A stretch of DNA of 64,000 nucleotides from a virus. Each line of letters starts with the position of its first letter. Position 1 is the first letter of the stretch. Positions 2,847 to 57,357 of this stretch are shown piece by piece. The notes beneath the pieces were generated by a model that was given only the letters and a program-made list of their open reading frames with translations, was not told where the DNA came from and did not search any database. The stretch covers positions 1-64,000 of the IMG/VR virus record IMGVR_UViG_3300043775_001610. The stretch is one strand, 5' to 3'. Position numbers and translations under genes: made by a program.

Positions 2847-3269
2847 TTAGAGATAACGAGCAATAGCATTGTAAGTGCTTGTGCTTACTGTTTCCTCATC
2901 TGTCATCTTTAGAATACGAATTGCGTTTTCCAATTCCTCTTTCATCTCATTGTATGAGTGGCGGTGGAGAACTTCGTAGTCCTTCTCAGGCTCTTTAGGA
3001 AAGTCTGACTCATTAACTGTTAAATCAAAATCAACATTAAGTGTCTTGTTCCATGAGCGATAGTTTGTGCGTAGGTTTTCTGCCTTAGCAAAATTAGCCA
3101 TAGCAAACTTTGCTACTTCTTTGCGCCACTTTTCTAAAGCCTTTTCGTGCTTTGCTTCGTTGGCTTCTTGTGATGCGTAATCGGCATTTAACTTTGTCAA
3201 GCGAGTTTCTAGTGCCTTGATTACCTTTGGTGTTGCGATTTTTACGCTAATTGCTTTCTGTCGTGCCAT
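2847..3269 (-). CDS. hypothetical coiled-coil protein
   Basis: ORF track; AAGGAA RBS; own promoter. Confidence 0.8.
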   Translation of the reverse strand: MARQKAISVKIATPKVIKALETRLTKLNADYASQEANEAKHEKALEKWRKEVAKFAMANFAKAENLRTNYRSWNKTLNVDFDLTVNESDFPKEPEKDYEVLHRHSYNEMKEELENAIRILKMTDEETVSTSTYNAIARYL

Positions 3270-3308
3270 TTGTTTCCTTCTTTCGTTGTGGGTTGGGTTG
3301 ATGAAGTA

Positions 3309-3330
3309 ATTATAGCAGGGGGGTCTGACA
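3309..3330 (-). promoter_or_regulatory. TGTCAG-N10-TATAAT promoter
   Basis: TGTCAG ACCCCCCTGC TATAAT. Confidence 0.75.
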
Positions 3331-3355
3331 TTTCTGCGACCCCCCTCCCATTAAA

Positions 3356-3538
3356 TTAAACGCCTAGTAGTGTTTGAGCGGATACGGAAGTCCAACGAGT
3401 TTCCTTGTTGGGCATTTCCAATAGCACACGCACCGAGCCAGATGTTTGTGGGTGGATTTCTTTAATCACACCTGTTTTCTTTGACTTAAGGGTAGTGAAT
3501 AAATCGCCTACCTGATACAACTTGTCGTTGATTGTCAT
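3356..3538 (-). CDS. hypothetical protein (SH3/KOW-like small beta protein)
   Basis: YQVGD...K.TGVIKEI pattern; AGAGG RBS. Confidence 0.65.
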   Translation of the reverse strand: MTINDKLYQVGDLFTTLKSKKTGVIKEIHPQTSGSVRVLLEMPNKETRWTSVSAQTLLGV

Positions 3539-46478: not shown

Positions 46479-46813
46479 ATTTAGCCGCTTTAGAAGGCCA
46501 AGTTTTTCTTTTAGGTCACTGGAAGAATTACGAAGAGCTAGAAGAAAATTTATCGATGCCAGAATTGGTTCAAACCATAACAGCGATAAATGAAAAAGAG
46601 CATAACCAAAGAAGATTCGCAGCATCTCTAAAAGGAATACAATTAGATGATGATGTAGAAGAAAAAGAAAAAGGTTCTACCTTTGAGGATATCCAAAGAA
46701 GAGCTCTTGGAATTAAAGCATCAGCAGATGATGTTGTTGGTTTACAAGGTCCCTTCGCAGCGCAAGCTGGATTTGGAATTGGCGCAGGGTTAGGATACTC
46801 TAGGAGTAATTAG
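46146..46813 (+). CDS. tail assembly chaperone G-T product via -1 frameshift
   Basis: Slippery C CCA AAC at 46436-46442; -1 frame open for 38 codons into ORF 46556-46813. Confidence 0.8.
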
Positions 46814-49800
46814 TGGCTGACGAACAAATCGTAACCAGTATAGTCGCCAAAGCCGACTTGTCTAGCCTTGTGTCTGAAGTACACAGGGCTAGCGCTAGTC
46901 TACAACAATTACAAAGAGAGCTTCTTTCTTCAAACAGAGCAATAGCTGCTTCAACAAAGTTAGCAAATAACTTATTTAGAGATACACTGACTGGTAGTGG
47001 ACAATACTCCAGCCACTTTGTAAACCTTAATTCTGATGTAGATAAGTTTGGTAAAAACTTAGACGCTGGTAGATTAAAACTTAAAAACTATTTTTCAACA
47101 TTTAGAGAGCATGCTACAACACAAAAGGGCATGATCAGGGAGCTTGCCAAAGAGCAGGTAATGCTTCAGAATGCAGTACTTCAACCATTGGGTAGAAATG
47201 CTCAAGGTTTAATGCAGTACAATGTTATGATTCCTAGAGGTTTAGATGCTGTAAGAAATAGCGCACAACTAGCTCGAATGGAAATGCAGATAATGAATCG
47301 TGCATTGTCTGAAGGAGCAGGATCTTTAATTAACTGGGGTAAGAATACTCAGTGGGCAGGTAGACAGCTAACAGTTGGATTAACCGTTCCACTTACAATG
47401 TTTGGAGCGGCAGCTGGTAAAGCATTTAGAGAAGCAGATGCTGAATTAGTAAGATTAACAAAGGTTTACGGAGGACTAGCATCAACATCTGCACAAGATC
47501 TCAAAGCAATTAGAGAAGAAGTTGTGCAAACAGCAAAGTCTTTATCCCAAACAATGGGAGCCTCATTTAAAGATACAATTGCATTGGGTGCTGATATTGC
47601 AGCGACTGGAAAGATGGGCAACGATCTTTTAGAGTCAATTTCAGAAACTACTAGACTTTCTATTTTGGGTGAAGTTGACAGACAAGATGCTATGAAAGCA
47701 ACTCTATCAATTCAAACAGCATTTAAACAGAATACAGAAGAGCTTACAGAATCAATTAACTTTTTAAACGCAGTTGAAAACCAGACATCAACTACACTTG
47801 CGGATTTAGTAGAAGCAATTCCAAAAGCAGGTCCAGTAATTCAGCAACTAGGCGGAGATGTCAAAGACTTAGCTCTTTATTTGACAGCAATGCGAGAAGG
47901 TGGAATTAATGCATCAGAAGGTGCTAACGCATTAAAGTCTGGACTTGCATCTCTTATAAACCCAACAAAACAAACTGTCGGTATGATGTCAGACTTTGGC
48001 ATAGATGTTATGGGTATGGTTGCAAAAAATACTGGAGACACAACAGGCTTATTAACAGACTTACAAAAAGCTTTAGACAGCCTTGACCCGTTAAGCAAAG
48101 CAAGGGCAATGGAGCAAATGTTTGGAAAGTTTCAGTTTGCAAGAATGAGCGCCTTGCTTAATAACCTAGGCAAAGAAGGTAGCCAGACACTTCAGGTTAT
48201 GGAATTGATGAAAGCAAGCACTTCAGATTTAGCAGGAATTGCTGAGCGAGAATTAGGAATGATAACGGAATCCGCTTCTGGAAAATATAGAAGAGCTATG
48301 GAATCCCTAAAAGCATCTCTGGCAGATATTGGAGAAGATTTCCTACCAGTTGCAACAAAGCTTGTAAATGCAGCAGCAAAGATATTAGACTTCTTTAGTA
48401 ATTTACCATCCCCAATTAAAAAAGCAGTTACTTTCTTAGCAGGATTTACCGCATTAGTTGGACCACTTATTATGTTAACTGGTGTTCTTGCTAACTTCTT
48501 TGGATACATAACTAAGGGTATTGTTCAACTAAGAGCATTCTTTATGAAAGCTAATGGATGGAAGATGCTTACTCCAGAAATTATTGCCGCTCAAAAAGCA
48601 GCAGAAATGGTGGAGAACGCATTTTATTCAGATGCAGCAGCAGCTCAAGTTCTTCACAATGCATTACAAAAACTTGTTTTAGATTATCAAAATTTGCAAG
48701 CAGCTTCGATGAAAAATGCTGTTCCTGTAAACCCAGGAGTAAGTACAGTTGGCGGTGCACCAGTAATGGTTGCTGGAAGAAGAGTTGTTGACCCTAATGA
48801 TCCTTATGTAGGAGATGTTAACACTAGAGCAATGTCTCACATTAACCCTAGAGATCCTAATAATCCTGCAACAATATTTGGTGGTGTTCCTGGCGCAGTT
48901 CCAGTTAACAGAGGAATATCAAGAACCCCTCAAGTATACATGCATGATAGACTTCCAAATATTGAAGGACTAACAAGTATAAAAGGAATATCGACAGGAA
49001 TTGTTCCAGGAGAAGCAGCTAAATTTCACGCATTGATGGCAACACTTGGTATGCAAACCAAGCAAGAGGTTGCGGAATTAAAGAAAACAATTGCTATGGG
49101 TGGAACAGTAAGCAGAGAGCTACTAGACACATTTGATGACATATTGCCAATAACTCAAAGATTTGCAGATAGTGCAGCAACACAAGCAGCAGTAATTGTG
49201 CAGCAAATGAGAAATGCAGAAATAACAGTTGAGCAGGCAAAGGCAAGAATCTTAGCACTCAATGCACAAATAGAGGCAGACATGGGTACAGCGGTAAGCA
49301 TGTATGCTGCAGGCCGAGGAAGAACGCTAGATTTAACAAGAGCTCCGATGATGGATCAACCAGTTGTTGATGCAAATGGTCAGTTTACACTAAGAGATCT
49401 TTATAAGAAAAAAGCAAATGCTTCTGTGATGGAAGAGTTTGGAAGACTTCGTGGAGTAAGAACATTCGGCGCACCATATAGTATTCAAACAACAAGAATG
49501 CCTAGATTTAATACTGGAGGAGACGTAGAGTCGTTTGGCCCAAATAAAACTATGGTGTCTGGTCCATCTTCAATTAACTATGACGATAGGTTGGGAGAGG
49601 TCCCTCTCGGTGGATATGTTTTAAATCAGCAGGCTTCCATGGATCCAGCAAATGCTGATTTGGTTGCTATGGCTCCATCTACTTATTTGAATAATGGTGG
49701 AAGCATTACCGCAGCTCTTACCCCACGGGAGGTTGTCTTTGGTCCACAAATTCAAAGAATGCCTGAGCTTTATGCAGCCGTAGATGCAGCAAATAGTGGA

Positions 49801-52800
49801 TATAATTTCGGCGGGCAGATTATGGCTGGTATTACTGGATATGGAAAGAAAACATCTAATACTCCAGGAAGCAAAATGGATGAAAGACTGTTTAAAAAAC
49901 AGTACAAGGAATATTTAAGATTTATTAATAACCCACGATATGAAGATGACATGAGAGTAAGAATGATCATGTTGGACGCAGCAGAACTATCTTATACAGC
50001 AAAGATGCCTATGGATCAAGCTATAAAGACAGCAACATCTAATTTTGATTCTGCTAAAATACAATCTGGTGGATCTGATGAGAAATTTGTAAAGATAAGA
50101 ATTAAACAGGTACAAGATTTAGAAAAAAAGCATAAAGAGCTAAAAGTTAAAAATGCTAGAACTGCCGACACAAGCAGTAGCAAGGCTCTTAACTATAATT
50201 TAAACAAGGTCAGAGATGCAATGCTGGCTGACAAAAGCTTTGCTGCCGTCCATGATTTAATAAAAGATGTTTCCCCAACAACATTTAAAAATCGTAAAGG
50301 AATGCCAATCATCCAAGGATTGCATGATAGAGCACACTTTAGGCGTCGAGGTACACTTGGTTATATGACCAGCGGATACATGGGTCTTGCTGCAGTTATG
50401 CCTTCAGGAATAAATAATATAATGAGCAGGCTTGAAACTCTAGGACTATCAAGAGATGTTTTAAATTTAAATGCAGCAGATGCAAGAGAAAATTTTGCAT
50501 TAGCTTTAAAGAAAACAGGTATGGATAAGTTTGCAACAGTAGACGATCTTTATGCAGCAGTTATGGACGACGGTAAGTTTAAGACCAAGGCGCAAATAGA
50601 GTCTGGTAATGTTGTAAGAGCAAATAGAAAGCAGAGAGATTCTTGGAGCATGTTCTTACGAGCTGCAGCAACAAGACAGAAATGGATTCCAGGAAGACCA
50701 CCTAGACTTGTACCAGCTGGATACAACCTTGGCGGAATGATTCCAGGAGGGGCTATATCTAGAAATAGATTAAACTACGGCAACATCGCTCCGCTGCTTA
50801 GGTTATTAACACCAAGTCAACAGCTAAAGGTTTTAGGTCATGCCCGTGCAATGTCTTTTACAGGACGTTCTCCATACCCAAATACATCATATAGCCACAT
50901 AATATCGCCAAGCACAGGTCGTAGTTTCCCTGTACCTGGAGTTGGTGGAGTTTATGATGATGATCAAAAGAACAGAGTGTTTTTTAAAGCGGTTCCAAAT
51001 GAAAAAAGTTTAGTTGCAGAAACTCATGGAACAGCGATAGGAAGAATACTAAAAGTAATTACTCCAGTTCAAACTAGAAAAACAATTCCTAACCCACTAG
51101 ATCCAACTGGAAAATCAAAGTTCCTTGGTGCAGAATCACCTTATGATGAAGGATTTATTAATCCTAATACATCTATACCTGGAAAATTTAGTCAAGATGA
51201 AGTTTTAGATCAGCTTATTACATCTCTTATTTTTGGAAATAAAGATTTATCAAGAGCAAATGTTCATGGAAGACGACTAGCCGATGTTGGAAATGGAGGA
51301 GTATTAGCTAAGGCATCTATGAATGATGACTATGCAAAAACAATGCCTTCTATGGAAGAGATGGCAATGATCAATTTGCTGCAAGTTCGTGGAGGGGCTA
51401 GAAAAGATTTTGCTCATGACACCGCTCCTATTATTGCACAAATGACTCCAAAGCAGTATGGGGATGCCATAAGAGAAAAAATGAAAGCGGCTTATCCAGA
51501 ACTAAAGAAATATATACTTGCTATTCCTAAAAAAGAAAGAAAGCCTTACTTAGCTATGCTTGAAAGGTTTGAAACTGGCATGGATGTCGATTGGGCCAAA
51601 TATCATTCTATGCATGCTAATCCTAAATTTAATGCTGGAGGACCAGTTGGTGGAGGTCCAGTTCAAAGAAACAGATATGCTTATGGACGCAAAAAAGATG
51701 GATCAAGAAGACTAGGTAACCCAGCTGCAAGAGCAGCGCAAGAAAGAGCAAGAGCAGAGAGATCTGCAGCTTATAACCCAAGCAGCGGATCTTCATATAC
51801 AGCGACTGGAAATCCTCAGATGCAGGTAGCACGTGTTCCGTTTGTTGGAGGAACTGGAGTTCGTGGTAATGCTTACACTGGAGTTCCTACTGAATCTATG
51901 GCCAGAACAGTTGGTGTGATGAGACTTGCACAATTCCCTCATATGAATATGCCAACAATGCCAATGAATATTCCAGGAATAGGTAACACGTCAGCAATAA
52001 CAGCAGCATTTGCATCAATGGGAAATTCAATTAAAAGAGATTCAATGCAATTAGCAAAAGCTATAAAATTTAATGCACAATATATCTCTATGTCAACTAA
52101 AGAAAGTGCAATGTCTATTGTTAATAGAACAAAGTCTGCAGCAAATACAGTAATGACTTATACAAAAGCTATATCAAGTCAAGTTCTGGCTTCATCAAAA
52201 GCACAAGTTTCAAGACTTAAATCAGCTGGTTCAAGGTTTTATAATTCAATTGTAGCTGAGCAAAATGCTTACGCAGCAACAAGATATCCAGTTGGACAAG
52301 CCCCACCACAAGGATTTTTTGGCCCAGGCTATGTTGGTAAATATAAAGATTTAGGTGAGGGGCTACAGTCTAGAAAAGTAGGAAGCCTAGGTTTTAGAAG
52401 AACAGAGTATCTAGTTAATGGCGTAAGCATGACTGCAAAGCAGGCAAAAGCAGAGGGAGTTAGAATACCTCAAAGAGCCAATGGAATGAGCGTGGGTGCT
52501 CAAATGGGAATTGGTATGGCTGGATCAATGGGTGGCATGGCATTGATGCAACAAGAAAAGGTAAAGGTTTTTGGAACAGAGATGTCTGGAATGACTGCTG
52601 GAATGGGATTAATGGCTGCTACATCAATAATTCCAATGCTCCCTTTGGCAAAAATGCTTGCTGGAATTAAAGCTGGTGCAGCTTCAGCTAAAGCTGCAAT
52701 ACAGGGATTCTCAATGACAATGAAAGGCCTAAGAGCAGGAATTGCTTTACTAGCCAGATTTGCAAAAGGCTTTGGCCCAATTGGAATAGCTATAACAATA

Positions 52801-55800
52801 GCAACAGCAGGATTTAAAATTTATAAGGCAATTCAAGATGACTGGCAAGATGCCAGAATGGGTCTTTCAATGACTGCAAAAGCTGCAGAACAGGCAGGAG
52901 TGAAATACTTTAACTTGCAAGAAACAATGCAAGGCTATCTAGATAAGCAAAAAGCTGTAGCAGTTGCAGCTAAAGCATCACAATTTAATTCAATAGGAAT
53001 GCCTGGACTTCCTAAATCTGTAGAAGATGTAAAAAAGGCTAAAGAAGAAGGAAAGGCCTTAAAAGAAGTTATTGAGTCTATTAATAGATCAACTAGTACA
53101 GAAGAAACAAAGAGACTTCTATCAACTCAAAAGGCTCAATATATTGCAGGCGGAATGAGTGTTGAAGAAGCAAACAGAAAGCTATATGGGGCATTGCTTA
53201 ATAGTAATAAGGCTATGCAGGCATATGACATTCTAGGAAACAGTGCATTTGGAAAAATTGTAGACAAAGCAACGGCTGCAGAGTATGCTGTTGGAAACTT
53301 GATAAACACATTAAACAAAGGCTCAGGAACAGCTGATTGGTATAAAGAGGTTGCTGTAGGATTTGAAGGATTGATAAATACTTTCCAGGCAGCAACATCA
53401 AGCTTAATTGGAACAAAAGATGCAATGGGAAATGTTATAGATGATTATAAGGCTTATGACATGGTCATGTCTAGTTCAGAAAAAATGTATCCAGGGTTTA
53501 CTGCCCCAATTGGTGAAGAGGCATATGATAACCTTAGCAAGACAAACAAGCTGTTGGCTGGAATTGTAACTAAATCAGATAGCGTAAAAAGTATATTAGC
53601 AAAATGGAGTTTATTTACATCTGGAGTTAGTTATGATTTAAGTAAGATTGGTCCAGAGTTGGCAATTCAGTTAGCTGGATTTTCTGAAGCAGTTGGATCA
53701 GGAATTACTCAATTAACTAAGGCAGGTGGAGACGCTACTACTTTTGGAAAAGTTGGGTCTGCTTTAGAAAAATTGAAAAAGCAAGTAAATGCTGTTAGCG
53801 CCGCTTCTCAAAGGGCTGCAGCTGCAGCTCAAAGAAGCGCACAAGAAGAATTAAAGCTGCTTGATAAAAAACTTAAAGCTATTGATGATGAAAAAAATAA
53901 AAAACTAGAATCTTTAAGAGCAACTCAAGAGGCATCAAATTACGCATTAGAGTTACAGAAACTTCAGATTGAGTATGCTGATGCTGTTTCTCGTGGAGAT
54001 ATGGCAGCAGCAAATCGTGCCCAATTAGAAATAGACCAGCTTACTTTAAACAGACAGTCAGAACTTGCTCAAAAAGCAATTGAAGATGCAGCAAATAGGG
54101 CAAAAGCTCCTATAGAAAAATCTAAAAATGCTATACAAGATAAAGCTGACAGAGATAATAACGCTAATCAAAATGCTACAGATAATGCAGCACAAGCGGC
54201 AGAAGTTTCTGAAAAGCTAGTTGGCTTCCAGCAATCATATAATGAGTTAATTGAGCGTGGAATAAAGGCAAAGCTTATGCCAGACCCAGAAAGAATAAGA
54301 GAAGAAAAGAAAGTGCAGGAAGGTCTCCTTGCACTAGCCAAAGAACTTCAGACAGCTGGAACTGGAAACACAGCACTTGCTAAAGCAGTTCGTGAAGGAT
54401 TCCAAAAATTAAAACTATTTGATAAAGATGGAAATCCTGTAAGCCTTACAACAAAAGCGCCAGCAACAACTGGATCTGGAATGCCAAAAATTGGTCCAGA
54501 TGGAAAAGTTGTAACTCCATCTCCAATAATAAACCCAGATCTTCTTAAGCAATTTAGTAAAGATATGTTGGCAGTATCTGATATTGCAGAAAAAATAACT
54601 GGTGGTAAAACTAACTTAGATAGACTTAGAGTAGATTTGCTTCAAGCTTTAGGAGTTAATCCAGACAAATTATCAAAGACTGGTGTTGCTGGAAAAACTA
54701 CTGGAACAGGTTTGCCAGGAGATCCTAAAAAATATTTTGATTCATCTGGCAGAGAGATATCAGAAAAAGAATATAAGAGTCTACCAGTAGGAGCACCTAA
54801 AGGCGCAAATGGTGTATCTGGAGAAACTTATATAGTCCCTATAAAAGGTCTAAGCAATAGAGAGTTTACAGGATATCCCGATGTTAGCTTAAAATTTGCT
54901 AAAGCAAATGGTGGCAAACTTACTTTCCAGGATACAAACGGATACATTTACTATTCAAATGGTAAAGTTACGAAGGATGGAAAAACAGTTGGCGCATGGC
55001 TTGCTGCTCTACCAGGTGGAAACGGAAGATTAAAGTCTTACCATGAAGGCGGAAAAGTATTTGGCGAAGGAACTGCAACATCAGATTCTATTCCAGCAAT
55101 GCTTTCGGATGGAGAATATGTATTTAGTGCAAAGGCTGTAGACGCTGCTGGCGGACCAGATGTTGTTGACAACTGGCACAAAGCACTTAGAAGAGCAGAT
55201 GGCGGACCAATTTATCCTTTAGGTAAAAAACCAAAGTCTGCATACAACTCTAAGAATCAACCTACTGGAAGTCCTTACGGAAGATACTGGGGAGAATTAG
55301 AAAGACTATATCAAAGCTCACCAATCGGTTTTGATAAAAATGGAAAGCCTATATTTAATAATGCTGGAAAAGATCCATGGGGCGGAGTAGAGATACCAGG
55401 ACTTCCATTTAGTGGCAAGGTAGGACAATTCTCAGATTACTGGCATCAGCTAGCAGAGCAACCAAGAAAGTATAGCGGTCCTGGAATGGGTCTTGACAAG
55501 GATCCAATGCGTTACGCAGGCTCTGGAGCTTCTATGGGAGGCATTGGAAACGGTGCTTACGGAGTTGGTCCACTTATGTTCCACGCAGGTGGGGCAGTCG
55601 GTCATAAGCATGATGTAAATCCAATTACAAAGGCATTTAGGTTCTTTAAGAATGCAATGAATAATGGAACAAATCCAGCATCATCAATGATTATGGATAT
55701 TATAAATCAGGCAGGGTACTTAGGGCAAACTGGCCTAAGCAGCCTGACAAAGGGCATAGTTCCTAAGCCTACTAAAGTCCAAGATAAGGATTTCCAAGAG

Positions 55801-57357
55801 TTTACAGGAATACCTTCAATATATAGATCTGTCACTAATAAAACAGATGAGGGCCCAGTTGGACAAGTTGATCCTACTGCTGGAAAGATTGTAGATTACG
55901 CTGGGGCATTAACATTTTTAACTCCGTGGCGTTCATCTAGTCGTATGGCTGCAAATGCCGCAGCTTCTGCAGCACTACCAGCAGCTCCACCATTATCACC
56001 AATCGAAATGTTCAGAGGACAGTTTGATAGTTTTGATGTAAGTGGGTTACCAAAAGGCACTATGAGCACAGGACCAAGAGTAAAACCTTGGGAATATGAA
56101 ACATACAAAAAAATACTTGCAAGACATTATTTAGCGAAAAAACCAGACCCAAGAACATTGACTCAACACGAAGTCGCAGTTCTTGCACACCAGAAGGTTC
56201 CTGGCTTTGAAGGGTTAAGGGTTCATGACGAATACACTGCAGAGTCAATTGCCGACAGCTTAAAGTTAAGAGCTACCTTTAATTACACTTCTCCATTGAC
56301 GAAATCGGTATCCACAGTAGAAGAGCTTTTAAGCAAGTCTTTATTTCATGGTGGAAACCTACCAACGGTAGATGGAAAAATTGATTTAAAAAATAGAACT
56401 GGATTAAACAGCTGGTACGGCGGTCAGATGTTTGCCGCAGAAGATTACAAGCAGGCCTTAGCATACCTTATGAGATCTCCAGAGAATACAGTCTATTCTG
56501 TTACATCTGCATTAAAGAAAGAAGATGTAATAGACCTTAGACATAATGCAAACACGCTAGCTTCACAGCAGCCTTATGTATTTGCAAAATTACTAAGAGA
56601 CATAGAGTCTGGTAAAATTGCACTTCAAGACCATCAGTCAAAGGACTATGTTATACAAATGTTGATAGGTCAAGAGGGTGGAAGATATCCACGTGCTGCA
56701 GGCTCTGGAGCACTTAGAGATAGAATTTTCCAAAGATACTTCCAAGACATTTCTCCATGGTTAGCAGAAAACGGAATAAAGGCAATTATTCATAGAAATG
56801 GAACAAGAGTTGCTATCCCAGAAATAGGAAAATCCGTAGCAGATAACCCAACTAAGGTGCAAGATTTTAGCGAGCTAGGTACCGATGCAATAGCCTACAC
56901 CACGGTAGAAAATTCAATTGCACAAATACAAAAGCATACTATAACTGGCCAAATGGTTAAGGATCTTATTGAAAAAATGGGCAAGGGACAACTACCCTCC
57001 TCACTTGAGTCACAAATACTTGCAATGCTTAGAAATCCTACATTAGTACCTCATAAAGCATTAGGTGGATTAATTAAATCAACAGGAATGAGACTACCTA
57101 AATTTGAGGCGGGAATCAATATGGTTCCACAAGACATGCTAGCGTTAATTCATAAAAATGAAGCTGTGATCCCAGCCAATATGAATCCATTTAATCCAAA
57201 TGCTAAATCTTCAGCAGTAGCATCAGGATCAGTATATAATATTAATGTAGAGCTAAATGGAACTACAGTAACAGCAAAAGACGTTGCAATGGAAATACAT
57301 AGAGAAATGAGAATTAAAGAAATGGCATCTGGAGTAAATAGAAAGGTTGGTGGGTGA
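46813..57357 (+). CDS. tape measure protein (TP901-type core) with inserted accessory domains
   Basis: NWGKNTQWAGRQL.VG.T.P; RLTKVYG; FLNAVENQT...L.DL..AIP; GANALKSGL; 3514 aa; position after chaperones. Confidence 0.92.
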   Translation: MADEQIVTSIVAKADLSSLVSEVHRASASLQQLQRELLSSNRAIAASTKLANNLFRDTLTGSGQYSSHFVNLNSDVDKFGKNLDAGRLKLKNYFSTFREHATTQKGMIRELAKEQVMLQNAVLQPLGRNAQGLMQYNVMIPRGLDAVRNSAQLARMEMQIMNRALSEGAGSLINWGKNTQWAGRQLTVGLTVPLTMFGAAAGKAFREADAELVRLTKVYGGLASTSAQDLKAIREEVVQTAKSLSQTMGASFKDTIALGADIAATGKMGNDLLESISETTRLSILGEVDRQDAMKATLSIQTAFKQNTEELTESINFLNAVENQTSTTLADLVEAIPKAGPVIQQLGGDVKDLALYLTAMREGGINASEGANALKSGLASLINPTKQTVGMMSDFGIDVMGMVAKNTGDTTGLLTDLQKALDSLDPLSKARAMEQMFGKFQFARMSALLNNLGKEGSQTLQVMELMKASTSDLAGIAERELGMITESASGKYRRAMESLKASLADIGEDFLPVATKLVNAAAKILDFFSNLPSPIKKAVTFLAGFTALVGPLIMLTGVLANFFGYITKGIVQLRAFFMKANGWKMLTPEIIAAQKAAEMVENAFYSDAAAAQVLHNALQKLVLDYQNLQAASMKNAVPVNPGVSTVGGAPVMVAGRRVVDPNDPYVGDVNTRAMSHINPRDPNNPATIFGGVPGAVPVNRGISRTPQVYMHDRLPNIEGLTSIKGISTGIVPGEAAKFHALMATLGMQTKQEVAELKKTIAMGGTVSRELLDTFDDILPITQRFADSAATQAAVIVQQMRNAEITVEQAKARILALNAQIEADMGTAVSMYAAGRGRTLDLTRAPMMDQPVVDANGQFTLRDLYKKKANASVMEEFGRLRGVRTFGAPYSIQTTRMPRFNTGGDVESFGPNKTMVSGPSSINYDDRLGEVPLGGYVLNQQASMDPANADLVAMAPSTYLNNGGSITAALTPREVVFGPQIQRMPELYAAVDAANSGYNFGGQIMAGITGYGKKTSNTPGSKMDERLFKKQYKEYLRFINNPRYEDDMRVRMIMLDAAELSYTAKMPMDQAIKTATSNFDSAKIQSGGSDEKFVKIRIKQVQDLEKKHKELKVKNARTADTSSSKALNYNLNKVRDAMLADKSFAAVHDLIKDVSPTTFKNRKGMPIIQGLHDRAHFRRRGTLGYMTSGYMGLAAVMPSGINNIMSRLETLGLSRDVLNLNAADARENFALALKKTGMDKFATVDDLYAAVMDDGKFKTKAQIESGNVVRANRKQRDSWSMFLRAAATRQKWIPGRPPRLVPAGYNLGGMIPGGAISRNRLNYGNIAPLLRLLTPSQQLKVLGHARAMSFTGRSPYPNTSYSHIISPSTGRSFPVPGVGGVYDDDQKNRVFFKAVPNEKSLVAETHGTAIGRILKVITPVQTRKTIPNPLDPTGKSKFLGAESPYDEGFINPNTSIPGKFSQDEVLDQLITSLIFGNKDLSRANVHGRRLADVGNGGVLAKASMNDDYAKTMPSMEEMAMINLLQVRGGARKDFAHDTAPIIAQMTPKQYGDAIREKMKAAYPELKKYILAIPKKERKPYLAMLERFETGMDVDWAKYHSMHANPKFNAGGPVGGGPVQRNRYAYGRKKDGSRRLGNPAARAAQERARAERSAAYNPSSGSSYTATGNPQMQVARVPFVGGTGVRGNAYTGVPTESMARTVGVMRLAQFPHMNMPTMPMNIPGIGNTSAITAAFASMGNSIKRDSMQLAKAIKFNAQYISMSTKESAMSIVNRTKSAANTVMTYTKAISSQVLASSKAQVSRLKSAGSRFYNSIVAEQNAYAATRYPVGQAPPQGFFGPGYVGKYKDLGEGLQSRKVGSLGFRRTEYLVNGVSMTAKQAKAEGVRIPQRANGMSVGAQMGIGMAGSMGGMALMQQEKVKVFGTEMSGMTAGMGLMAATSIIPMLPLAKMLAGIKAGAASAKAAIQGFSMTMKGLRAGIALLARFAKGFGPIGIAITIATAGFKIYKAIQDDWQDARMGLSMTAKAAEQAGVKYFNLQETMQGYLDKQKAVAVAAKASQFNSIGMPGLPKSVEDVKKAKEEGKALKEVIESINRSTSTEETKRLLSTQKAQYIAGGMSVEEANRKLYGALLNSNKAMQAYDILGNSAFGKIVDKATAAEYAVGNLINTLNKGSGTADWYKEVAVGFEGLINTFQAATSSLIGTKDAMGNVIDDYKAYDMVMSSSEKMYPGFTAPIGEEAYDNLSKTNKLLAGIVTKSDSVKSILAKWSLFTSGVSYDLSKIGPELAIQLAGFSEAVGSGITQLTKAGGDATTFGKVGSALEKLKKQVNAVSAASQRAAAAAQRSAQEELKLLDKKLKAIDDEKNKKLESLRATQEASNYALELQKLQIEYADAVSRGDMAAANRAQLEIDQLTLNRQSELAQKAIEDAANRAKAPIEKSKNAIQDKADRDNNANQNATDNAAQAAEVSEKLVGFQQSYNELIERGIKAKLMPDPERIREEKKVQEGLLALAKELQTAGTGNTALAKAVREGFQKLKLFDKDGNPVSLTTKAPATTGSGMPKIGPDGKVVTPSPIINPDLLKQFSKDMLAVSDIAEKITGGKTNLDRLRVDLLQALGVNPDKLSKTGVAGKTTGTGLPGDPKKYFDSSGREISEKEYKSLPVGAPKGANGVSGETYIVPIKGLSNREFTGYPDVSLKFAKANGGKLTFQDTNGYIYYSNGKVTKDGKTVGAWLAALPGGNGRLKSYHEGGKVFGEGTATSDSIPAMLSDGEYVFSAKAVDAAGGPDVVDNWHKALRRADGGPIYPLGKKPKSAYNSKNQPTGSPYGRYWGELERLYQSSPIGFDKNGKPIFNNAGKDPWGGVEIPGLPFSGKVGQFSDYWHQLAEQPRKYSGPGMGLDKDPMRYAGSGASMGGIGNGAYGVGPLMFHAGGAVGHKHDVNPITKAFRFFKNAMNNGTNPASSMIMDIINQAGYLGQTGLSSLTKGIVPKPTKVQDKDFQEFTGIPSIYRSVTNKTDEGPVGQVDPTAGKIVDYAGALTFLTPWRSSSRMAANAAASAALPAAPPLSPIEMFRGQFDSFDVSGLPKGTMSTGPRVKPWEYETYKKILARHYLAKKPDPRTLTQHEVAVLAHQKVPGFEGLRVHDEYTAESIADSLKLRATFNYTSPLTKSVSTVEELLSKSLFHGGNLPTVDGKIDLKNRTGLNSWYGGQMFAAEDYKQALAYLMRSPENTVYSVTSALKKEDVIDLRHNANTLASQQPYVFAKLLRDIESGKIALQDHQSKDYVIQMLIGQEGGRYPRAAGSGALRDRIFQRYFQDISPWLAENGIKAIIHRNGTRVAIPEIGKSVADNPTKVQDFSELGTDAIAYTTVENSIAQIQKHTITGQMVKDLIEKMGKGQLPSSLESQILAMLRNPTLVPHKALGGLIKSTGMRLPKFEAGINMVPQDMLALIHKNEAVIPANMNPFNPNAKSSAVASGSVYNINVELNGTTVTAKDVAMEIHREMRIKEMASGVNRKVGG

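Follow-up and report, generated by a model that had tools for sequence, protein, structure and literature searches.

We have analysed a stretch of 64,000 nucleotides of viral DNA (positions 1–64,000 of the 110,252-bp IMG/VR virus record IMGVR_UViG_3300043775_001610, which is estimated to be 92% complete), referred to from here on as the window, in which a single uninterrupted open reading frame (ORF) of 3514 amino acids (aa) encodes a tail tape measure protein (TMP) with a kinase-like domain in its middle third. The full phosphotransfer set of residues is present in this conserved, predicted kinase-fold domain of a true TMP, where it is an optional cassette under purifying selection. An initial annotation, made by reading the sequence, had placed a HipA/PI3-PI4-kinase-like domain inside the TMP, and the motifs it quoted were all recovered within the one ORF, with YNLGG (50722) and FNAGG (51628) on either side of the domain and GVGGVY...RVFFK...SLVAE (50938–51021) and GNKDLSRANVHGRRLADVG (51235–51291) inside it (see Table 1 for all features).

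The ORF is a bona fide TMP. It matches the Pfam family PhageMin_Tail (PF10145) with 91 bits (cut-off 33) and the NCBIfam model TIGR01760 with 102 bits (above the cut-off), while matches to 13 TMP PHROGs fall within the first ~650 residues. The order of genes around it is portal, protease, major capsid, adaptor, immunoglobulin-domain major tail protein, two small chaperone ORFs, TMP and minor tail proteins, so that a protein with a TMP core profile has the tail chaperones on one side and the distal tail protein on the other, and this siphovirus order is that of Streptomyces phage Wofford, gene for gene.

Table 1. Features of the tape measure gene and its kinase-like domain, with positions in the window; residue counts are from the alignment of 138 domain pieces described in the text.
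Feature	Position	Strand	Notes
TMP gene (P0001)	46813..57357	+	3514 aa; PhageMin_Tail, TIGR01760 and 13 TMP PHROGs; gene order as in Streptomyces phage Wofford
Conserved N-terminal TMP core, aa 192–551	47386..48465	+	TIGR01760 match; 34% identity to the Wofford TMP over aa 100–669
Strongly hydrophobic segment, aa 537–566	48421..48510	+	Kyte-Doolittle scan
Upstream bracket motif YNLGGMIPGGAISRNRLNYG, aa 1304–1323	50722..50781	+	In register, 10/20 residues are identical in the downstream bracket
Helical lead-in, aa 1324–1355	50782..50877	+	AlphaFold2 helices predicted at model residues 22–27 and 31–44; moderate conservation
Predicted protein-kinase-like domain core, aa 1356–1603 (~250 residues)	50878..51621	+	Conserved in 158 representatives; AlphaFold2 model; only kinases matched by VIA-align and Foldseek
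Gly-rich loop GVGGVY, aa 1376–1381	50938..50955	+	G1379 133/133, Y1381 129/133; just before and into model strand 76–79
K1392, β3 lysine (VFFK)	50986..50988	+	133/133; inside model strand 85–91
E1403, helix-C glutamate	51019..51021	+	136/136; inside model helix 94–109
Catalytic loop GNKDLSRAN, aa 1475–1483 (D1478, N1483)	51235..51261	+	After model helix 158–171, as in kinases
D1491-V-G1493, DFG-like metal-binding motif	51283..51291	+	D 138/138, G 134/138; fixed spacing from N1483
Downstream bracket motif FNAGGPVGGGPVQRNRYAYG, aa 1606–1625	51628..51687	+	No DNA-level repeat with the upstream copy

Conservation and predicted fold of the domain

A HMMER scan of 1.84 billion representative proteins with TMP aa 1304–1610 as the query (threshold E ≤ 1e-3) identified 158 representatives matching the domain, 109 of them at E ≤ 1e-30, and the stretch these homologs have in common corresponds to query residues ~52–300. 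Among the best 150 of the 158, 114 are at least 2000 aa long, and 17 homologs are shorter than 1000 aa, including P0091 which begins inside the conserved LGMP lead-in motif and whose sequence suggests that it is truncated. A scan using a small seed alignment confirmed the domain in at least 225 IMG/VR contigs.

To assess conservation, we aligned 138 pieces of the domain which had been cut out of the best 150 representatives (of 158); the 133 homologs with full coverage have a median identity of 36% to the query. The catalytic D1478 is kept in 137 of the 138 rows and N1483 in all of them, the β3 lysine and helix-C glutamate are invariant in the rows covering them, and of the 133 rows spanning every key column, 132 contain all five catalytic residues (K, E, both residues of D-x4-N and the Asp of D-x-G). 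N1483 and D1491 are separated by a spacing of 8 in every row, and an Ala-Ser pair after the D-x-G motif (aa 1501–1502) is also invariant. When the domain was compared with two close IMG/VR relatives (96% and 88% amino acid identity, respectively), the ratio of non-synonymous to synonymous substitution rates (dN/dS) came to 0.11 and 0.16. Because these residues are conserved among the homologs and dN/dS is this low, the original observation is real and the kinase-like domain is under purifying selection.

The window copy and six other representatives (P0002–P0007) form a seven-member subclade with an altered lead into the catalytic loop, where the near-invariant R and first D of the family's LRGDKDL motif have been replaced together by F/L/M and N (window positions 51223–51246, aa 1471–1478, read FGNKDL, and P0002–P0007 read (L/M)(A/N)NKDL). 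This subclade retains every one of the catalytic residues (K, E, D, N and D).

We modelled the domain using AlphaFold2 and an alignment (A3) of 61 rows, consisting of the query, P0091, P0126 and 58 matched stretches from IMG/VR loci which had been drawn from 80 of the 225 confirmed contigs. This gave a model with a predicted local distance difference test (pLDDT) score of 79.1 and a predicted template modelling score of 0.81, while the single sequence gave an unusable model with a pLDDT of 35. The predicted N-lobe has strands at model residues 59–63, 76–79 and 85–91 (the last containing the Lys), a helix at 94–109 (containing the Glu) and strands at 118–123 and 133–140, followed by a helix at 158–171, the D-x4-N loop, a short hairpin, the D-x-G motif and a helical C-lobe at 211–299. 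This is the order of secondary structure elements seen in protein kinases, with five strands, one helix between the third and fourth, and a helical C-lobe.

All of the listed matches between the model and known structures are kinases. VIA-align, a method independent of Foldseek, was used to search 48,161 representative chains and listed 50 rows, all of them kinases, with 13 chains at Z ≥ 8; the top match was CotH (5jda; Z 11.4, 220 residues aligned with a root mean square deviation of 4.3), followed by others including MavQ (Z 10.4), CtkA (9.9), PI4KIIα (9.8), HipA (9.4), Fam20C (9.1) and HipT (8.9). The Foldseek matches listed for the PDB were likewise kinases only, with CtkA first (E 7e-4, probability 0.98) and then Fam20C, JNK3, Vps34, CotH and PI4KIIα. 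The 30 nearest clusters in an ESM Atlas feature search have no common Pfam family, and the nearest clusters having one are assigned to PI3_PI4_kinase, LepB_N and HipA_2. We also note that, among the BFVD matches, some large proteins of actinophages whose annotation is ADP-ribosyltransferase or portal contain kinase-fold domains.

The bilobal fold, the combination of Gly loop, β3 Lys and αC Glu, and the Asp-x4-Asn loop with its metal-binding Asp are those seen in the protein-kinase-like superfamily, and on the basis of the model it is very probable that TMP aa ~1356–1603 form a bilobal domain of this fold.

Relationship to characterised kinase families

The likeness to HipA and PI3/PI4 kinases claimed by the initial annotation stands at the level of the fold, where CtkA, HipA and the PI3/PI4 kinases are among the nearest structures with CotH and MavQ slightly ahead, and both of the checks that it named, a kinase-fold match and catalytic residues kept in homologs, came out in its favour. 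Membership of these sequence families could not be upheld. Pfam searches of the whole TMP and of the kinase segment found the TMP core as the sole match, and those of each of the 61 family members at E ≤ 10 found scattered chance matches and no kinase family. A sequence search of the PDB using both the single sequence and the 61-row profile found nothing below E 0.2, no match to the kinase segment was found in NCBIfam or PHROGs, and the HipA_C (PF07804; E ≤ 1) and CotH (PF08757) profiles had no match anywhere in the phage record.

Membership of the HipA family was not supported, as none of the 61 members has a HipA_C match (E ≤ 10) and an hhalign comparison between A3 and Escherichia coli HipA gave a probability of 0.1. 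The context is also not that of a HipA toxin–antitoxin system with a HipB or HipS partner and a HipA N-domain, as the phage domain lies inside a TMP and its neighbours are tail genes. The CtkA, HipA and HipT structures (3akj, 4pu3 and 7ab3) resemble the domain in fold (Z 8.9–9.9) and in the order of the Lys, Glu, D-x4-N and metal-binding Asp, but the phage domain has neither the HipA N-terminal domain nor a HipB-type partner, and has an N-to-D spacing of 8 residues.

Similarly, there is no Pfam match to the PI3/PI4-kinase family (PF00454), and the catalytic loop, which is NKDLSRAN in the window and DKDLxxxN in the family, does not have the His of the DRHxxN motif. PI4KIIα, Vps34 and the Legionella lipid kinase MavQ share the fold (Z 8–10.4), the GxGGxY Gly loop and a D-x4-N loop of the same type; they differ from the phage domain, which has a (D/N)KDLxxxN loop without the DRH histidine and no helical or FAT accessory domain. 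CotH from Bacillus cereus (5jda/5jd9) is the best fold match, is also found in the Foldseek list, and has an atypical kinase-like fold acting on structural proteins. However, the two share 9% identity, and CotH is a free spore-coat protein while the phage domain is a cassette in a virion protein; with no PF08757 match in the record or in the 61 members, the similarity is one of fold only.

In shape, the model places the domain closest to the atypical group which includes CotH, MavQ, PI4KII, CtkA/HipA and Fam20. Because no library model matches it and its catalytic loop lacks the PI3/PI4-kinase His, the domain is a new sequence family of protein-kinase-like fold and not a demonstrable member of the HipA, PI3/4K, CotH or Fam20 groups. 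This adds to the kinase-like superfamily a family that has been missed by current domain libraries.

The domain as an optional cassette

The N-terminal core of the TMP has homologs in 286 GenBank phages, none of which has the kinase domain, and the domain was absent from 50,697 GenBank phage records searched using blastn and tblastn. The Wofford TMP (2084 aa) aligns with the window TMP only at the N-terminal core (query aa 100–669) and over the last ~100 residues. In the window subclade both flanks of the cassette carry the motif [FYLW]NxGG..GG...R.R..YG, with the same pair found in the close homologs P0002–P0006, and in many other homologs both flanks carry instead the TMP motif ...PAMLSPGEAVIPA...KY...G.IPG[FY], which has the same bracketing role.

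Motifs of the [FY]NxGG type recur elsewhere in the window TMP (at 49507, 49687, 49801, 55039 and 55579), and the two copies flanking the kinase cassette are part of a longer motif of 20 residues, ..NxGG..GG...RNR..YG, which is conserved on both sides in close homologs. Recombination joints, cleavage sites and structural hairpins are candidate roles for these motifs. A recent duplication was considered as their origin and rejected, as there is no repeat at the DNA level and BLASTP aligns only RNRxxYG.

Further modules are found in the related TMPs. Of 150 homologous TMPs, eight contain an HAD phosphatase module, which in three cases immediately follows the kinase cassette. The window TMP has no such module. 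In P0021 (aa 1002–1137) and P0031 (aa 1030–1154) this module adjoins the kinase, scores above the Acid_phosphat_B cut-off and has a weak HAD_PNKP match, so that some homologs have a kinase and phosphatase pair inside one TMP. Near the C-terminus of the window TMP, a block of ~480 residues (aa ~2933–3415; window 55609–57057) is replaced in the close relatives P0002, P0003 and P0006, while its flanks are 62–70% identical among the closest TMP relatives; no PHROG match was found for window positions 55594–57054, and the block appears to be a second swappable cassette. Taken together, the absence of the domain from the TMPs of related Streptomyces phages, the bracket motifs, the HAD modules and the replacement of the C-terminal block depict a TMP with exchangeable enzyme cassettes, of which the kinase domain is an optional one.

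The position of the cassette relative to the strongly hydrophobic segment was compared across the family. Such a segment lies N-terminal of the kinase domain in 101 of the 114 long homologs, at a median distance of 204 residues, with the domain starting near residue 750 in most homologs and the segment at ~540–570. The window TMP has ~550 additional residues between the two.

The nearest isolates are Streptomyces phages of ~130 kb belonging to the Stanwilliamsviridae (61–62% identity for the capsid protein and ~33% for the TMP N-terminal core). When 185,579 species were searched using one genome per species, the matches listed included two metagenome-assembled contigs with the domain (L083 and L084), labelled Bifidobacterium sp. 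and Acidimicrobiaceae, both of which are actinobacteria; these may be phage contigs binned with their hosts and not prophages. The record also includes a WhiB-family gene outside the window (record positions 96397–96570; 47.5 bits with a cut-off of 23.6), and a WhiB match was found only in Corynebacterium among 14 control genomes. The host is likely to be an actinobacterium because of this WhiB gene and the Streptomyces phages being the nearest isolates. We note that the WhiB gene indicates such a host despite a G+C content of ~38% across the window.

Possible activity and site of action

Siphovirus TMPs occupy the tail lumen and are expelled ahead of the DNA. We propose that the cassette is an active ATP/Mg-dependent phosphotransferase carried as optional cargo by a TMP which would fill the tail tube and leave the virion before the DNA. 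Since the tail lumen of ~4 nm is too narrow for several folded 28-kDa copies, the cassette would be carried unfolded to an extended, non-native form, and would regain its fold on reaching the cytoplasmic membrane of the host, either at it or inside it, where ATP is present. The refolded kinase would then phosphorylate either the Ser/Thr of a host protein, as do CotH, CtkA and HipA, or a lipid head group, as do PI4KII and MavQ, and this would precede the expression of any phage gene. It should be noted that we hold the parts of this proposal with different degrees of confidence: catalytic activity is probable from the sequence and the model, action in the newly infected cell has at best an even chance and perhaps slightly less, and for the proposal as a whole, an active phosphotransferase working in the new host, we see the case as evenly poised.

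Enzyme modules within TMPs are already known, as the T5 Pb2 and mycobacteriophage TM4 proteins carry muralytic domains used in entry. These differ from the phage cassette in that their substrate, peptidoglycan, is cut on the outer side of the membrane with no requirement for ATP. Here what is apparently a competent ATP-dependent kinase is found in TMPs from hundreds of phages that are uncultured. An analogy that makes delivery into the host plausible is provided by Thermus phage P23-45, where the N-terminal part of the TMP gp96 is a virion RNA polymerase transcribing pre-early genes (Chaban et al. 2024, PMC10770324), and this was the sole experimentally supported precedent we found for a cytoplasm-acting enzyme in a TMP. 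Like the window TMP it is a giant protein, bearing an enzyme that acts in the cytoplasm at the very start of infection as we propose for the kinase; unlike it, the enzyme is an RNA polymerase and not a kinase, and the phage lineage and host are unrelated. If our proposal is correct, siphovirus tails can deliver cytoplasm-acting enzymes within the ruler protein, which has so far been shown only for the P23-45 polymerase, and the finding would bear on the first seconds of infection before transcription.

We searched the literature for kinases within TMPs and found no example. Early modification of host proteins has been shown or proposed for other phage kinases, including T7 gp0.7, which is expressed after entry and not carried by the virion, and the kinase domains of phage polyvalent proteins. 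The latter are described, in a paper which does not mention TMPs (Iyer et al. 2017, PMC5512222), as missing the entire C-terminal subdomain and having a His...Asp pair, while the TMP domain is predicted to have a full helical C-lobe. Modular effectors related to TMPs have also been described for actinobacterial contractile injection systems, and these do not include kinases (PMC13277306).

A number of points weigh against the proposal. No sequence model in Pfam, NCBIfam, PHROGs, the PDB or hhalign ties the domain to a characterised kinase, and the Foldseek E-values are borderline (7e-4) with template modelling scores of 0.3–0.36. That the five residues share a single active site is predicted from the order of secondary structure elements and not from distances, and kinase activity is itself a prediction from the sequence and model. 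The loss of the R and first D in the window subclade may alter activity or regulation. Several folded 28-kDa domains cannot sit side by side in the tail lumen, refolding after ejection is assumed, and it is a supposition that the middle third of the TMP reaches ATP.

The timing of any activity might also be different, with the cassette acting during assembly in the producer cell to phosphorylate the TMP or other virion proteins (for example, for solubility or ejection priming) and leaving the next host unmodified. CotH, the top structural match, and the Fam20 kinases act on structural or secreted proteins, the invariant Ala-Ser pair is a possible autophosphorylation site, and a kinase acting at this stage would have plentiful ATP and no need to refold after ejection. 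However, the related TMPs, including those of all GenBank relatives, make tails without the cassette, and its co-occurrence with swappable enzyme cassettes such as the HAD phosphatase looks like cargo, and on balance we think assembly-time activity unlikely. We are more doubtful still about a lipid kinase, in which the TMP would insert into the membrane of the probable actinobacterial host and phosphorylate inositol lipids at the entry site using cytoplasmic ATP. Phosphatidylinositol and its mannosides are abundant in the membranes of actinobacteria. If the lipid kinase reading were true, the bilayer could be remodelled for the DNA channel or the infected cell marked, and no phage lipid kinase delivered by the virion would have been known before this one.

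Other explanations dispense with phosphotransfer. A pseudokinase or nucleotide-binding structural module that serves as scaffold or plug, or senses ATP on arrival in the cytoplasm, seems rather improbable: pseudokinases typically lose at least one of the Lys, the catalytic Asp and the DFG Asp, and here 132 of 133 rows retain every one of them with fixed spacing, although many kinase-fold proteins are known to function without catalysis, and the window subclade does not have two near-invariant residues beside the catalytic Asp. The fold is also known to permit other chemistry such as AMPylation (SelO) or glutamylation (SidJ), and no substrate is assigned to the predicted domain, but the canonical Asp-x4-Asn and D-x-G arrangement is intact, which makes this very unlikely; SelO and SidJ are not among the top structural matches listed, a listing which does not rule them out. 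We discount almost entirely a chance resemblance of motifs in a low-complexity part of a coiled-coil protein with no true domain. The empty Pfam, PHROGs, NCBIfam and PDB sequence searches and the poor single-sequence model might have suggested this, but it is refuted by the 158 homologous representatives with invariant motifs, the confident A3-based model, the kinase-only structure matches and purifying selection. The proposal of an active phosphotransferase delivered to the new host offers a concrete testable case, consisting of one domain with five point-mutable residues.

Downstream (3') of the kinase cassette, TMP aa ~1890–1995 (window 52480–52800) form a Gly/Met/Ala-rich and moderately hydrophobic stretch. 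It resembles the glycine-zipper regions weakly detected by Pfam in the homolog P0031, and may be a second membrane-active segment.

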